A stretch of DNA of 62,908 bases, filler included, from Globobulimina sp. (taxonomy: Eukaryota), in NCBI GenBank assembly GCA_003354225.1. It is 40 parts of 40 records of this genome, joined end to end, with 100 filler letters (N's around TTAATTAATTAA, not from the genome) between each part and the next. Parts side by side here need not be neighbours in the genome. Positions count along the whole stretch, not along the records: positions 1 to 1,476 come from PIVH01016078.1; 39 more parts are not named here. One strand, 5' to 3'. Position numbers and translations under genes: made by a program. Below the pieces are notes generated by a model, which saw nothing but the letters and a program-made list of their open reading frames with translations, ran no database searches and was not told where the DNA came from. This document shows, piece after piece, positions 1-62,908 of this stretch (position 1 is the first letter of the stretch; each line of letters starts with the position of its first letter).

Positions 1-247
1 TTGGGTCAGTTTAAAAGATTTTGTTTAAACTGATTTTATGGTTTCAGTTTCAAACTATGTCTTTCTCATAGTTTGAAACTATAATCTTTCCTCAGTTTCA
101 AACTGATTTATTTTTCATACAAATATATGAATCCATTCCAAATGCATCCATTGCGCATCGCGTTGGCCATCTGGCGCTATGTAATAAATGTATTCTATAC
201 TATCCTATACTAATCTATCCTATACTAATCTATACTATCCTATACAG

Positions 248-1122
248 GTACACCCGCAACACATCGTCGTCCACGCGCCCAACATCGATATGATAGCCAT
301 CGCGCCGCAGCCTTTCGGTTTGATCCGACAGACGCCGTGGACAGTGATAATGATGAAGAGAAACAGATAATTTTGGGCGGCGATAGAAACGAAGAATTGG
401 TGGCGTTTGTAAAGCAAAAACATAAAATGCAGTCGATTTTGGAAATGTGGTATGGATACAGAGTGATATTATTGAAGGCGAAGGGTGGCAAAGAGAAAGT
501 GCCGAATTATCGCATTCCCACTGAAAATATTCAATTTTTAGTCCATTGGTTGGTCGCCGGCTCGTTAGTATTTGAGCAGGCGAAAGAATATAATGTATCG
601 TTTCACCCGGATGGCCTCGCGAGCGCAGCCGTCCATCAAAGGATCGCGCAGGTATTTAATGTTGTGCGAGAGAAATTAGGGATTAGTGGGTATAATCCCA
701 TTAATAAGAGCATGTCCGAGCGCATTTTTAAGAAATTATCGGCGGGTTGTGGGCACCAGGAGGATAAGACCCACTATGTAAACGTTTTGCTCAACAAATT
801 GCAGATGGATGTAAATGGATTATTATCAGCAAACAAAGAATATAATGATGATTTTACCCGGATCACCATGAATGCAGCATCAAAGAAAATTAGTCAATTA
901 CAAAGGCGGCATGACAAAGTCTCGAAAATGGATGTAAATTTGGAGGCGACGGTGGCGACGTTACGGCAGATGGTTGATTTGGAAACGAAGAAATTGATGA
1001 ATGAAAATAAGAAAAAAGTGGAGGCAGAAAAGGAAAACATTCAGAATTTGGTTGGGCGCGCGCATGAGAATGACATTGGTTTGTGGCGCTATTATGCAGT
1101 ATTAAATATTAATAAGTATTAA
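248..1122 (+). CDS. Hypothetical eukaryotic protein, terminal exon with C-terminal coiled coil (possibly TE-encoded)
   Basis: ORF 337-1122 stays open upstream to a putative acceptor TATACAG ending at 247, after a TATACTAATCTAT-repeat intron-like stretch. Confidence 0.55.
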
Positions 1123-1220
1123 AATGTTTGAAACTGCTTTCAAACAAAGGCATTTTCATGGTTTGAAACTGCCAAAATGCGGCAGTTCAAAAGGTATCAA
1201 ATATAATAATAGTTTCAGTT

Positions 1221-1413
1221 TCATTTCATTATAAGAATCTGGTTTGAAACTGAAACTACACTCTCAGCACACACAAAATCTAAGAACATACCACAAAGCG
1301 GCGCGCTGCGCGCGCCACGCCGCAAGCGGCGTCGCTTTGTGTTATGTACTAATATTTGGTTTGAAACTGAGATTATACTTTCAGTTTCAAACCAGAATCT
1401 TATAATGAAATGA
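1221..1413. repeat. 35-bp inverted repeat (1221-1255 / 1379-1413) enclosing a GC-rich T-shaped double hairpin (1286-1346)
   Basis: Arms are TCATTTCATTATAAGAATCTGGTTTGAAACTGAAA and its near-perfect reverse complement (1 mismatch). Inner hairpins are GGCGCGC-TGC-GCGCGCC and ACGCCGC-AA-GCGGCGT. Confidence 0.9.
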
Positions 1414-1476
1414 TCTGTACCAGTTTATTTTTTAGAATTAGTGTCCGGGTCATGGAGTCTAGTTTTGTGTCCAATT

Positions 1477-25216: not shown

Positions 25217-25831
25217 GGCATGGACAATCCGAGGCAATACATCCATGTATCGAAATGTTTTCATTTTTGTAAAGTAACGGTACAGCCGATTCTTGAGATG
25301 TCGAACATAGATTTCTGCCATAGCCGCTTTGACATCGGGACTGTTGACACTGAAATACTGAATATCCTGTTGCTTTAGGAGATCCTGAAAACTCTGATTC
25401 CTGAATTCACGGCCTCGATCACTGCTCAGGCGCCATGGCTTACGTCCGGTATCGAAAATCTTTTGCATGGCTTTTGTTGTTTCATCGCCAGTTTTTCTCT
25501 TTAGTGGTATAGCCCATAGGTACCGACTTAGCACATCTACACAAACCAATACAAAAGTATAGTTATTGTTATATTTCTTCAGCGAAGAAAAGTCAGCGAG
25601 ATCGACTTGCCAATCGACATCGAGACCCGCGGTCACGATTCTGTTTCGAGGAAATCTCCTCTTTACCGGTTTATGTAGGGTATAGGTTTCTTGTTTACTC
25701 AAAAACTCTTTTACGTCTTTAACTTTTATTTTTGGAAGCTTCTTTTTCGCTTCCTTATACAATTTAGTAATACCAGCATAACAAACAGGGCTATCTGTAG
25801 AATAATATAACTTTTTCAATACATTATCCAT
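25217..25831 (-). CDS. Maverick/Polinton-type retroviral-like (rve) integrase, 3' truncated
   Basis: LYY...YAG..KLY..VKEFLSKQETYTLHKP...WQVDLAD...VDVLSRY...SDRGREF...AE is the characteristic Polinton c-integrase. Confidence 0.92.
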
Positions 25832-25842
25832 ATCTAATCACA

Positions 25843-42340: not shown

Positions 42341-42653
42341 GGATTTCTTTCGCCTTCATCAAAAAATTTTATATTCACTTATTTATGTTCGCGATATAAT
42401 TAACTTTTTTGATGTGTTTAACCACTGAATTATTATATGTGNNNNNNNNNNNNNNNNNNNNNNNNNNNNNNNNNNNNNNNNNNNNTTAATTAATTAANNN
42501 NNNNNNNNNNNNNNNNNNNNNNNNNNNNNNNNNNNNNNNNNCGATGTAAAAAGCGGTGATTCGAATCATATTACGTTCTATTACTAGCGAATCTTCGCCT
42601 CAAAGCGACAAGTGCTTTATCTGATTAATTTAGATCGAGGCAAATCGAAGTGA

Positions 42654-42770
42654 TGCTGGTCGCTGGTTACTTGTTGCTGGTAAAAGGAATCGCCGCGCTC
42701 TGTCATTTTTAATAAAATTGATAGAATACCTTTTTTTAACCAGAATCCAGAGACCAGCAGCCAGTAACAG
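42654..42770. repeat. Imperfect inverted repeat made of 7-bp units (CTGG-containing / CCAG-containing)
   Basis: TGCTGGTCGCTGGTTACTTGTTGCTGGT ... ACCAGAATCCAGAGACCAGCAGCCAGTAAC. Confidence 0.65.
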
Positions 42771-42840
42771 TTTGTTCTTCGAAACACAACATATTGAAAC
42801 TTATTTCGTTTGTGAACTTTTTAGCTATGTAAAACGGTTA

Positions 42841-43344
42841 ATGGATACTATTGCATATCTTTCAGTTGGCTCAAATATTGGCAACAAGGCAAAAAACTGT
42901 CGAAAAGGAATTGAATCTCTTGTTGATACCGGCACATCATTTGTAGTTAAACAGTCCGGATACTATATGACCGAACCTGTTGATTATAAAGACCAGGACT
43001 GGTTTGTTAATGCTGCTGTAAAAATAAAAACCAGCCTTGATCCGTTTCAGCTTTTAACAATTTTAAAATCAATTGAAAATCATGCGGGAAGAAAAGTTGA
43101 ACCAATCCGGTACGGCCCGCGCATTCTTGATCTGGATATTCTATTATATAATGACATGAAATTAAAAACACCAGAGCTTACAATCCCACATCCCAGAATG
43201 CATAAAAGATGTTTTGTATTAAAGCCTCTTTGTGATATAGAACCGAATATTGTTCATCCTGTTTTGCAAAAAGATATAAATTTTCTTTTAAATAATATAA
43301 ACGATACAGATCAAAAGGTTTTACCCTATAAATGCGATTATTAA
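42841..43344 (+). CDS. folK: 2-amino-4-hydroxy-6-hydroxymethyldihydropteridine diphosphokinase
   Basis: AYLSVGSNIG, QDWFVN, GPRILDLDILLY, IPHPRMHKR.FVL.PL. Confidence 0.97.
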   Translation: MDTIAYLSVGSNIGNKAKNCRKGIESLVDTGTSFVVKQSGYYMTEPVDYKDQDWFVNAAVKIKTSLDPFQLLTILKSIENHAGRKVEPIRYGPRILDLDILLYNDMKLKTPELTIPHPRMHKRCFVLKPLCDIEPNIVHPVLQKDINFLLNNINDTDQKVLPYKCDY

Positions 43345-60880: not shown

Positions 60881-61602
60881 AGCTAGCTCTAATTATTAAA
60901 TTATTAAATGTGCGTATAAATTTATAATAAGTGGACTGGATCAGACAATTGTAACCATGCACATGACATATGATATGTTGTTTAATTACTTTGTTTTCGA
61001 TGTTTCAGCAATCTGTGAGCAGACACTTTCTTTTTCATGCAAAATGAAGATGATATGAGGAAACGGAAGAGGAAGAGGAAAGTGATTGATTTGATTTCTT
61101 GTTGTTTTTGTATGTTTGAATGGTTATAATTATTTACAGTATTTTTATACGATTCATTTCTTAAATTAAATATTTAATACGGTTTTGGCATTTTTTTTAA
61201 ATTTTTTAAAGTTACTGAAAAATGAACAATGCTGCCAGGAAAAGACGATCACAACTATTGGTAAGTGGTTACGTTATAAAATGTAGGACTCCATACATCC
61301 ATACAGATATTATTAGTATCATCCATGCATTCCANNNNNNNNNNNNNNNNNNNNNNNNNNNNNNNNNNNNNNNNNNNNTTAATTAATTAANNNNNNNNNN
61401 NNNNNNNNNNNNNNNNNNNNNNNNNNNNNNNNNNTTTGAAACTGTATTATTGGCATAGTTTGAAACTGATCTGTTTTTTCAGTTTGAGCCAGAATTATTA
61501 TTTCAGTTTCAAACTAAATTCAAGGATTTGGATGGAAATCCTTGCTCTAAAAATACAGATTTTTATGTAACATAATAATTAATTAAAATATAATATATAC
61601 AG

Positions 61603-62638
61603 TAAGAAAGAACGTAAGCAGCACGATAATCGATTAAAATTGGCAAATAATAAGAAAAAAATGGAAGAAGCTGGTCTTCGGAGGACAGCTATTGTATACC
61701 CACCGGTATGGATGTCTTATAATCGATGGAGTTGTGACCCTCTACATTATTGTACGAGGAGTTTCTGTCATATGGCAGATTATTTTGGAAAGAAATTGGG
61801 CGATTGGTATACACCAACGGCTCATGAATGCAGGGATGGTATCATATTAATATTTGAATCAGAAATGTCTATAAGATCTGGATTTAGTCAGAAATGGATT
61901 CAATCTGTGGAAAAAAAACACACGCCGGTGACAAATGCAACAGGTCCAATCATTTCGCGCGTGTTAAAATCTGTATTTGTGGAAGCATTGCAATTTGCGA
62001 TTCGATTCGAAGACAATGAATTTAGATTATTAATATTATTATTCTTATTTGAAATATGTGAAAATACGCACGAATTACATGGATTGATACAAAAATATAA
62101 TTTCGAGAATGGCACAGATGATGAAGCATATATAAGATATCAAAAATTGGCAATCCGAAGATATAAAATGATATTGCAATTAAATGATGAATACAATATC
62201 CCGTATGAGTTATTTCATTTTTATGGAATACGACATAAAATGCATTATTTGGTGACAATGAATACCAATAACCGGGGAATAAGTCTCTCCTCCACTTCAC
62301 CACAAGAAGCGGTACAGAAAAAAGACAAAAGAGTCACAAAGATGAATGCGAATATGGATCGAGATGAATGTTGTAGACATTCAGGTTTATCAAATATTGC
62401 ATTTGGATTGGATTATATCCGAATAACAAAAGAGAATTTAACGAAAAGAAAAGAAAGAAACATGAGACAACGCATTCGAAAGTATGATGATGATGATAAG
62501 GAAAAATATAACAGGATTGCCTCCAATTTCAAGCCAAGAGCAGCGAATATTTACAAGTTGATACAAGATCATAATTTCGATGATGACATTGATGGTGAAT
62601 TAAAGGAGATTCGCAACAAAAGAAAAAGGAGAAATTGA
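61603..62638 (+). CDS. Candidate Transib/RAG1-like DDE transposase, C-terminal exon
   Basis: Ordered motifs DPLHYCTRSF, NATGPIISR, PYELFHFYGIRH, STSPQEAVQKK; acceptor TATACAG at 61596-61602. Confidence 0.5.
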
Positions 62639-62908
62639 ATTGATTTAATAATGGCAATGACATTGAAAAAAGATGAAATTGATTTGTTTTTTTTGTTTTT
62701 ATATCTTGCCGTCGTACATATATATTTTTATATACTTTTTATGAGTTTGGTTTGTTTTTATAATAAGTTCGCATTGAATATTTCCATTGATTTAATAAAT
62801 TTACTTTTCCATTCACGGTCCAATCAAAACAAAATTCAGTCTCAAAGTAAAAAAGAAACGTTTCTTAGCATACAAAAAAACATTATAAAGGCGGCCGAAG
62901 GCCGCCGC

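Follow-up and report, generated by a model that had tools for sequence, protein, structure and literature searches.

What is a T-shaped pair of GC-rich hairpins, enclosed by long inverted arms, doing in the genome of Globobulimina sp. (NCBI GenBank assembly GCA_003354225.1), and is it a replication site, a gene-flanking signal or a repeat? The window analysed here, that is the whole stretch of 62,908 bases, is not one locus but a series of 40 unrelated contigs of 1474-1476 bp each, which are joined by N44-TTAATTAATTAA-N44 spacers, and the palindromes spanning these spacers are artefacts of window construction. The structure in question lies at 1211-1413 in the first of them (contig 1, window 1-1476), and our searches within the assembly covered the 40 contigs. 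With a probability of about 0.5, we read it as a non-autonomous dispersed repeat of a foraminifer-like nuclear genome, similar to foldback elements and miniature inverted-repeat transposable elements (MITEs). Four things lead to this reading, namely that the arm behaves as a repeat unit, that two such arms stand head to head, that motifs of the family form phased arrays, and that contigs break in its sequence.

As to the structure itself, window 1221-1413 is an imperfect palindrome of 193 nt, which is real and thermodynamically extreme. Folding this segment, the check that the original prediction had proposed, gave -64.5 kcal/mol as single-stranded DNA against a mean of -19.1 (standard deviation 2.7) for 200 shuffles, i.e. 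a z-score of -16.75 with 0 of the 200 as good. The minus strand folds at -71.9 kcal/mol (z -16.71, again 0/200), and the core with its outer stem alone (1283-1350) still stands out at a z-score of -4.65 (0/200). The whole can be divided into three parts as follows, where L007 is an independent metagenome contig discussed below.

1211-1299, plus strand: left arm, a copy of an ~89-nt repeat unit, 95.6% identical over 45 nt to L007 1398-1442
1300-1333, unstranded: GC core of 34 nt, the cross-bar of the T, made of the adjacent hairpins 1300-1316 and 1317-1332
1334-1413, minus strand: right arm, an inverted copy of the repeat unit, 95.9% identical over 73 nt to L007 1408-1480

From outside to inside, the fold of 1221-1413 consists of a 34-pair outer stem, a looser middle, an inner stem (1286-1299/1334-1347) and the two GC hairpins. 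In the inner stem, which stands directly under the T, ACATACCACAAAGC (1286-1299) pairs with GCTTTGTGTTATGT (1334-1347) over 13 bp with C1291 left unpaired. The minimum-energy folds thus give a T- or Y-shaped hairpin, namely a three-way junction with two GC hairpins on the 13-bp stem, and the outer stem with side-by-side hairpins is present just where it had been predicted. The further claim that both hairpins are perfect over 7 bp holds on paper, and very nearly holds in the minimum-energy fold, where each keeps 6 bp: the first (GGCGCGC-TGC-GCGCGCC, 1300-1316) has a perfect 7-bp all-GC stem, one pair of which is given up as G1300 pairs with C1333 to lengthen the stem below, and the second (ACGCCGC-AA-GCGGCGT, 1317-1332) takes 6 bp and a 4-nt loop. 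Taken together, they are two adjacent GC-rich hairpins within a few tens of nucleotides (1300-1333). The 35-bp inverted arms of the prediction were recovered at 1221-1255 and 1379-1413 with 97% complementarity, and when lengthened to 1221-1267 and 1367-1413 they remain 91% complementary over 47 nt. At its full extent of 203 nt (1211-1413) the structure is a short non-coding element with terminal inverted repeats, and it is internal, with 1220 nt of non-palindromic DNA on its left and 63 nt on its right. Along the left arm the order is an outer end AGTTTCAGTTTCA, then GTTTGAAACTGA at 1242-1253, then an inner end ACATACCACAAAG. The right arm lacks the outermost ~10 nt that are found on the left arm and in L007, and it holds a module hairpin of its own (1357-1375/1376-1394).

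Such a long and stable fold could also belong to a hairpin-RNA locus, in which the palindrome is transcribed and processed to small RNAs. Many MITE-derived hairpins are processed in this way, so that such a locus would be compatible with a foldback or MITE-like repeat. The imperfect stem of ~190 nt, very stable on either strand, suits this possibility, as does a miRNA-precursor likeness at 1336-1412, which is below threshold and reflects hairpin shape only. However, no Rfam family reaches its gathering score anywhere in the window; the miRNA- and snoRNA-shaped matches in contig 1 are all sub-threshold, the best with 23.3 bits against a gathering score of 70. Moreover, the mismatches of the palindrome comprise 5 of the G-T and 2 of the A-C type in a slipping register, which gives no clear strand asymmetry. 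We therefore regard a hairpin-RNA locus as improbable. A hammerhead ribozyme core was considered as well and rejected on inspection by eye.

The evidence that the arm is a repeat unit comes from outside the assembly. One module-pattern scan of 241 million metagenome records returned four loci (L006 to L009), among which L007, a 2930-bp contig from an independent public record, carries a single arm. Its matches correspond to window 1211-1255 (the 45-nt alignment) and to the reverse complement of window 1341-1413 (the 73-nt alignment), and the similarity stops exactly at CAAAG, the base of the T, where in the window the GC core begins. L007 has no GC core, no second arm and no array. The arm is located in a 670-bp spacer between a calcineurin-like phosphoesterase gene (Metallophos) and a FAD-binding monooxygenase gene, ~160 nt downstream of one ordinary gene and ~460 nt upstream of the other, and its flanks are unrelated to the window. 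Judged by these alignments, the arm is a discrete unit of ~89 nt that occurs in unrelated genomic contexts at 96% identity, and this is the behaviour of dispersed, recently copied DNA rather than of a conserved regulatory site. In addition, the 89-nt block at L007 1397-1485 has TTGACGT on both sides; as a control, 367 of 50,000 random 12-mer pairs at the same spacing share at least 7 nt, and the 7-bp direct repeat is a possible target-site duplication.

The three other loci were rejected. L006 and L009 are chance hairpins with GC-rich, bacterial-looking flanks and a terminator-like hairpin, and L008 is a chance match to the module pattern in a phage-like contig with a terminase-like open reading frame (ORF). 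At 2001-2217 L008 has a hairpin of the motif 12-mer described below, after which a 37-nt tandem repeat containing TGTTTCAAAATGAAACA runs for 4.2 copies. As a separate observation, the FAD-monooxygenase gene of L007 (1645-2929, minus strand) is split into overlapping frames, 1645-2412 and 2354-2929, by an intron or a frameshift.

The same motifs that are found in the arms occur throughout contig 1. In the 62.9-kb window GTTTSAAAC has 11 exact matches where 1.18 are expected, a number that none of 100 shuffles reaches, and the longer motif CAGTTTCAAAC with one mismatch allowed has 17 where 1.74 are expected. Eight of the 11 are in contig 1 (47, 71, 95, 1126, 1161, 1242, 1359 and 1384), which is exactly the number that had been estimated for it from the sequence at first sight. 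The motif proper is the 12-mer GTTTGAAACTGA together with its complement TCAGTTTCAAAC, and inverted pairs of this 12-mer build hairpins at 46-80, 1125-1146, 1162-1191 and 1357-1394 as well as the large palindrome. To the left of the palindrome, contig 1 reads as follows.

23-106, unstranded: upstream array, four GTTT(N)AAAC sites starting at 23, 47, 71 and 95 with exact 24-bp spacing
187-246, unstranded: TATAC-based satellite, 15-nt unit CTATCCTATACTAAT, with two exact copies at 200-229
229-1122, plus strand: ORF1, stop codon at 1120-1122, conserved part from ~250-270 (QHRYDSHR)
1125-1146, unstranded: hairpin A, motif-built, TGTTTGAAA-CTGC-TTTCAAACA, beginning 3 nt past the stop codon of ORF1
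1162-1191, unstranded: hairpin B, motif-built, TTTGAA.CTGCC ... GGCAGTTCAAA, with 1167-1187 perfect over 7 bp

In the upstream array the flanks of the sites alternate in orientation (GTTTRAAACTGA / TCAGTTTCAAAC), and the sites 47-55 and 71-79 sit in the hairpin 46-80, which has a perfect 14-bp stem. Tandem Repeats Finder describes 46-119 as a repeat of period 24 with 3.0 copies and 71% matches. The satellite is a 60-bp block between the upstream array and the ORF, and within the window it is found only there. It abuts the start of the ORF homology and ends in ...tatacAG, which is possibly splice-acceptor-like.

The last contig of the window (61435-62908) shares the layout of contig 1, i.e. an array, then an ORF, then a GC hairpin.

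61435-61516, unstranded: array of four sites starting at 61434/5, 61458, 61482 (degenerate, GTTTGAGCC) and 61506, with exact 24-bp spacing
61661-62638, plus strand: ORF2, an orphan of 325 residues, unrelated to ORF1 and without a Pfam match
62886-62908, unstranded: AAAG and the GC hairpin GGCGGCC-GAA-GGCCGCC (62890-62906), perfect over 7 bp with a triloop, at the 3' end of the contig

Its array, ~145 nt upstream of ORF2 (ATG at 61661), has two 16-nt exact matches to window 42-59 and resembles the right arm (TTTCAGTTTGAGCCAGAATTATTAT against TTTCAGTTTCAAACCAGAATCTTAT). As for the hairpin, a scan of the 40 contigs for perfect hairpins (stem of at least 7 bp, loop of 3-7 nt) gave 40 rows, only two of which have all-GC stems, 1300-1316 and 62890-62906. 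Both are in motif-bearing contigs, both are preceded by AAAG and both have a 3-nt loop. Between them, 2 of the 7 stem pairs are changed on both sides and none is broken, which with two sequences is not significant (127 of 500 shuffles). The second has a C-GAA-G triloop, known for DNA mini-hairpins of exceptional stability. Directly before this hairpin, the sequence is weakly similar to the left arm, a likeness that is suggestive, and since the contig stops 2 nt past the hairpin, a second hairpin or an opposite arm would fall outside. Arrays and GC hairpins thus co-occur in two contigs with unrelated ORFs. Moreover, three of the four ends of these two contigs lie in sequence of the family, as is expected where repeats break short-read assembly.

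Could the palindrome be a chimeric fold-back, made by whole-genome amplification or assembly? We compared three runs of one sample (X1, X2 and X3) as Logan contigs at 85% likeness, in which contig depth is a poor measure. Contig 1 beyond its satellite is found in one of the three, X1 (share of words 0.59), which covers 30 of 30 bins of the contig; X2 and X3 cover the satellite bins only. The summed contig depth of the satellite is ~1.8 million in X1, 0.39 million in X2 and 1.5 million in X3. The runs are small, contig 1 appears in one of them, and it is short and ends 63 nt past the palindrome, all of which would suit an artefact. However, fold-backs give perfect inverted copies, and in the present case complementarity between the arms is 91% and their inner part is asymmetric. 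Besides, X1 has several divergent versions of contig 1 (~90% identity), and one X1 contig, 174 nt long, aligns without a gap to 1221-1392 and has 16 substitutions, therefore a second version of the arm-core-arm arrangement exists. Considering also the 96% arm in the independent contig L007 and the GC hairpin that recurs with another sequence in a like context of the last contig, an amplification fold-back, which the original prediction had named as what would overturn it, is very improbable. Eight of the 16 differences of the 174-nt variant are listed, all outside the core; six are at unpaired positions and two break pairs, which are too few to judge covariation. No flip/flop inversion of the inner hairpins was seen in the Logan contigs, one variant of which spans the core. 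Three X1 contigs share 1412-1476 and differ to the left of 1412, so that there is an edge at the right boundary of the palindrome, and the loose-end sequence seen there was not found elsewhere in the window. Altogether, the arm copies and relatives counted are the two in the palindrome, the one in L007, the partial one at 61435-61516, the array 23-106 and the variant palindrome of X1.

The ORF between the array and the palindrome of contig 1 had been proposed, as ORF 248-1122, to be the gene or cargo of a mobile element. Its stop codon is as predicted, and the frame is open already from 229, with no ATG before 427. HMMER, run exhaustively on 1.84 billion representatives, detected five relatives: P0001 (666 residues, 44% identity, E 3.7e-53), P0002 (604 residues, E 3e-24), P0004 (419 residues), and the fragments P0003 and P0005, the latter with 91% identity. 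The full-length ones span 419-666 residues, and several relatives have poly-asparagine tracts. P0002, the only named one among the five, is listed in EukProt under Nonionella stella, a foraminiferan. ORF1 is a member of a small orphan protein family. The homology opens at QHRYDSHR (~nt 270), a few codons past the end of the satellite, therefore the ORF is either a 3' exon or a 5'-truncated copy.

Other searches added little on its function. Pfam has no match for ORF1 or its relatives; a word-based search brought up no homologue of either ORF1 or ORF2, a separate profile search returned P0001 alone, and the Atlas gave no usable lead on function. The AlphaFold2 (AF2) model of ORF1 is all-helical at low confidence (pLDDT 60.8), and Foldseek against the PDB with this model had no match at E <=0.001 (best E 0.35); a profile search of the PDB by sequence was empty too, and the AF2 model of ORF2 is unusable (pLDDT 39.9). 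The Pfam, PDB-sequence and fold searches detected no HUH/Rep, helicase, DDE or tyrosine-recombinase signal in ORF1 or its relatives, and there is no polymerase or capsid signal in either ORF or in the relatives of 419-666 residues. We read ORF1 as probably a gene from an orphan family specific to foraminifers, which either neighbours the element or was duplicated along with it, and not as the enzyme of the element.

Such a gene brings in another explanation, that the repeats flank genes without being mobile. They would be the spacer of a tandemly or segmentally duplicated gene cluster and would hold cis-regulatory or termination signals, where the 24-bp-phased palindromic 9-mer binds a dimeric DNA-binding protein and the hairpins after the stop codon are 3'-end signals. 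Four-site arrays with exact 24-bp spacing are indeed upstream of both ORFs, hairpin A opens 3 nt past a stop codon, and the order array-ORF-GC hairpin is kept in both contigs, although two contigs would agree in relative order by chance one time in two. In P0005, moreover, the stop region is deleted and the frame continues into what window 1133-1203 would encode (~90% identity), so that at least one more copy has the ORF joined to the downstream motif hairpins, and the ~90%-identity variants of the whole contig in X1 point in the same direction. On the other hand, a regulatory site would keep a short motif, not 73 nt including spacers at 96% identity between unrelated loci. The two ORFs are unrelated, and in L007 the arm is found between ordinary genes with neither array nor core. 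A gene spacer without mobility is thus rather unlikely as the explanation of the whole, although it accounts for some of the facts.

A more far-reaching explanation is the one the original prediction had favoured, namely that the structure serves an extrachromosomal or virus-like element as a site of replication or resolution, comparable to the inverted terminal repeats (ITRs) of parvoviruses and adeno-associated virus (AAV), with the arrays as iterons. The three-way junction with two GC arms and 3-4-nt loops on a longer stem has this shape, phased repeats adjoin the T structure, and the related hairpin of the last contig has the stable C-GAA-G triloop. The presence of contig 1 minus its satellite in one of three runs would suit an accessory element, but would follow just as readily from uneven coverage. 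But the palindrome, as said, is internal and not terminal; neither ORF nor any relative gives a signal of HUH/Rep, helicase, polymerase or capsid; the arm occurs without the T core between ordinary cellular genes in L007; and contig 1 holds the super-abundant satellite of the organism. In the viral collections the arm pattern had 0 matches, a protein-based scan had 0 confirmed loci, and a motif-pair scan of viral contigs gave five loci with a single hairpin each; a scan of GTDB genomes had 0 matches, and blastn of the whole contig 1 against phages and plasmids had none, so that the viral, phage and plasmid collections yielded no relative. As regards iteron origins, there are four sites at an exact 24-bp period in two contigs, but their orientation alternates, unlike classical direct iterons, and there is no recognisable initiator-like protein. 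An origin of the ITR kind is therefore quite improbable. Of the original prediction, the part that calls for a protist mobile element fares better, in view of the foraminiferan relative of the ORF, the solo arm with its 7-bp repeat in L007 and the second copy of the layout in the last contig; the part that calls for a parvovirus- or AAV-like origin is not supported.

A variant of it, to which we give an equally low probability, is that the arm-core-arm arrangement is the cis-acting site of an undescribed hairpin-dependent mobile or episomal element of Foraminifera, one that recognises single strands or cruciforms, where the T would be recognised or resolved by a structure-specific enzyme and the 24-bp-phased GTTTGAAACTGA arrays would bind the element's own protein, possibly that of the orphan ORF family. 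If this is true, it would be a eukaryotic cellular analogue of ITR-type origins.

Returning to the foldback or MITE-like repeat, the following scenario may be proposed. Two ~89-nt repeat units, inverted head-to-head through the 34-nt GC double hairpin, would form a composite foldback repeat; each arm carries the 12-nt module GTTTGAAACTGA / TCAGTTTCAAAC, and the same modules make up the 24-bp arrays and the hairpins that flank the ORF. The family may spread as a non-autonomous mobile element of the MITE or foldback kind, with its 12-nt modules as putative sites for the binding of a transposase or recombinase that is encoded elsewhere and acts in trans. Each strand could snap back from the GC double hairpin, which would be a very stable point of nucleation, and this would favour hairpin or cruciform intermediates in replication, recombination or excision.

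Several points weigh against this scenario. Unlike a typical MITE, the 89-nt unit lacks terminal inverted repeats of its own; the 40 contigs of the assembly yielded neither a transposase nor an autonomous partner, and there is no direct repeat at the edges of the window palindrome. The direct repeat of L007 is a single, post-hoc case, whose right copy shares GACG with the window and may in part be left over from the core, and L007 is the only external arm copy among the four metagenome loci. The summed X1 depth is 68 (1201-1250) and 46 (1351-1400) for the arms and 30 for the core, which is not above the 20-80 of the ORF, so that there is no sign of a high-copy family and the copy number looks modest. 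Finally, since P0005 too has the ORF linked to the downstream hairpins, part of the data can be explained without transposition, by segmental or tandem duplication of a gene together with its flank.

Among known systems, foldback elements and palindromic MITEs come closest; the core by itself is nearest to mitochondrial double-hairpin elements and GC clusters. Like the foldback elements FB and Galileo of Drosophila, the repeat is short and non-coding, has as its arms long inverted repeats composed of reiterated short motifs, and can snap back as a whole into a hairpin; like them also, it shows intergenic dispersal, a possible 7-bp duplication at one copy, and the breaking of short-read assemblies. 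It differs from them in that there is no known autonomous partner or transposase, that the basic unit appears to be a single 89-nt arm without terminal inverted repeats, that the centre is a discrete all-GC double hairpin, and that the copy number appears modest. To our knowledge, such a centre is not known from described MITEs. Considering that the duplication is a single possible case, that no autonomous partner was found and that the solo unit has no terminal inverted repeats, we assign no named superfamily.

The mitochondrial double-hairpin elements and GC clusters of Allomyces, other fungi and algae count as selfish mobile DNA, and like the core they are two adjacent GC-rich hairpins of a few tens of nucleotides in AT-rich non-coding DNA. 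Here, however, the context is of nuclear type, with the neighbours of the arm in L007 and with a satellite and an orphan nuclear-type ORF in contig 1. Residence in a mitochondrion is not supported, as neither contig 1 nor the last contig has a mitochondrial gene, the ORF family includes the EukProt entry P0002 and proteins with poly-asparagine tracts, and the neighbours of the arm in L007 are genes of nuclear type. The GC core moreover lies between long AT-rich inverted arms, and the two cores seen differ in sequence.

The remaining systems share single traits with the structure. Parvoviral and AAV ITRs have the same T shape, with a long stem, two short GC-rich hairpins with 3-4-nt loops and short motifs adjoining, but they stand at the end of a linear single-stranded DNA genome (~4-6 kb in parvoviruses) with an adjacent Rep/NS1 gene (HUH plus superfamily 3 helicase), and their repeated motif is of the GAGC type; here the motif is GTTTSAAAC, no such gene adjoins, and an arm is independent in a cellular spacer. 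The subterminal repeats of CACTA (En/Spm) and hAT transposons and the iterons of plasmids are likewise motifs of 9-12 nt in both orientations, in clusters of 100-300 bp flanking an ORF. In our case, however, the termini are undefined, the ORF is no recognisable transposase or initiator, and the orientation alternates with a strict period of 24 bp, perhaps no more than the outcome of tandem duplication of a 24/48-bp unit. A Helitron 3' end was also compared, since here CTAA-T (1347-1351) follows the GC hairpins at ~12 nt, but there is no 5' TC end and no RepHel, the double hairpin is inside a symmetrical palindrome, and the L007 copy ends in CAAAG, not CTRR; on inspection by eye the likeness was judged coincidental.

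As for the rest of the window, it comes from a fragmented, non-axenic, low-GC eukaryote assembly. Its GC content is 0.24-0.41 (per 2-kb window), and 27 of its 41 long open frames are without a match in a Pfam scan. Eukaryotic genes in other contigs include a mitochondrial carrier, a C2H2 zinc finger and an rve integrase. The last is an rve integrase core domain in the open frame 25217-25837 (minus strand, E 2.5e-11), which is unlinked to the palindrome, and therefore some integrase-bearing mobile element exists in the assembly. The contig at 42542-44016 has a bacterial look, with HPPK (42634-43341) and, 175 bp further on along the same strand, transaldolase; LON substrate-binding and CarboxypepD_reg domains are found in other contigs. 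Therefore the assembly probably holds bacterial sequence beside that of the eukaryote.

According to PMC13746701, few rhizarian genomes exist and most of them are highly fragmented and of low contiguity, and passages of the Astrammina paper mention transposon-like contigs in general terms only. A full-text search for 'miniature inverted-repeat' combined with 'foraminifer' returned no paper, and the GTTTSAAAC-type motif as a literature term returned unrelated papers only.

To sum up, the finding is at present a well-documented curiosity in the structure of repeated DNA and does not amount to evidence for a new replication system; for all its striking structure, the element is probably selfish or repeated DNA of an ordinary kind. 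Few eukaryotic genomes are as poorly described as the nuclear genomes of foraminifera, and in such genomes a repeat family located at contig ends would help to explain why the assemblies break and would serve as a marker for repeat annotation. What is unusual is the discrete all-GC double hairpin, which recurs with compensating changes between AT-rich arms, and this would matter if the hairpin proved to be a recognised structure rather than a by-product.

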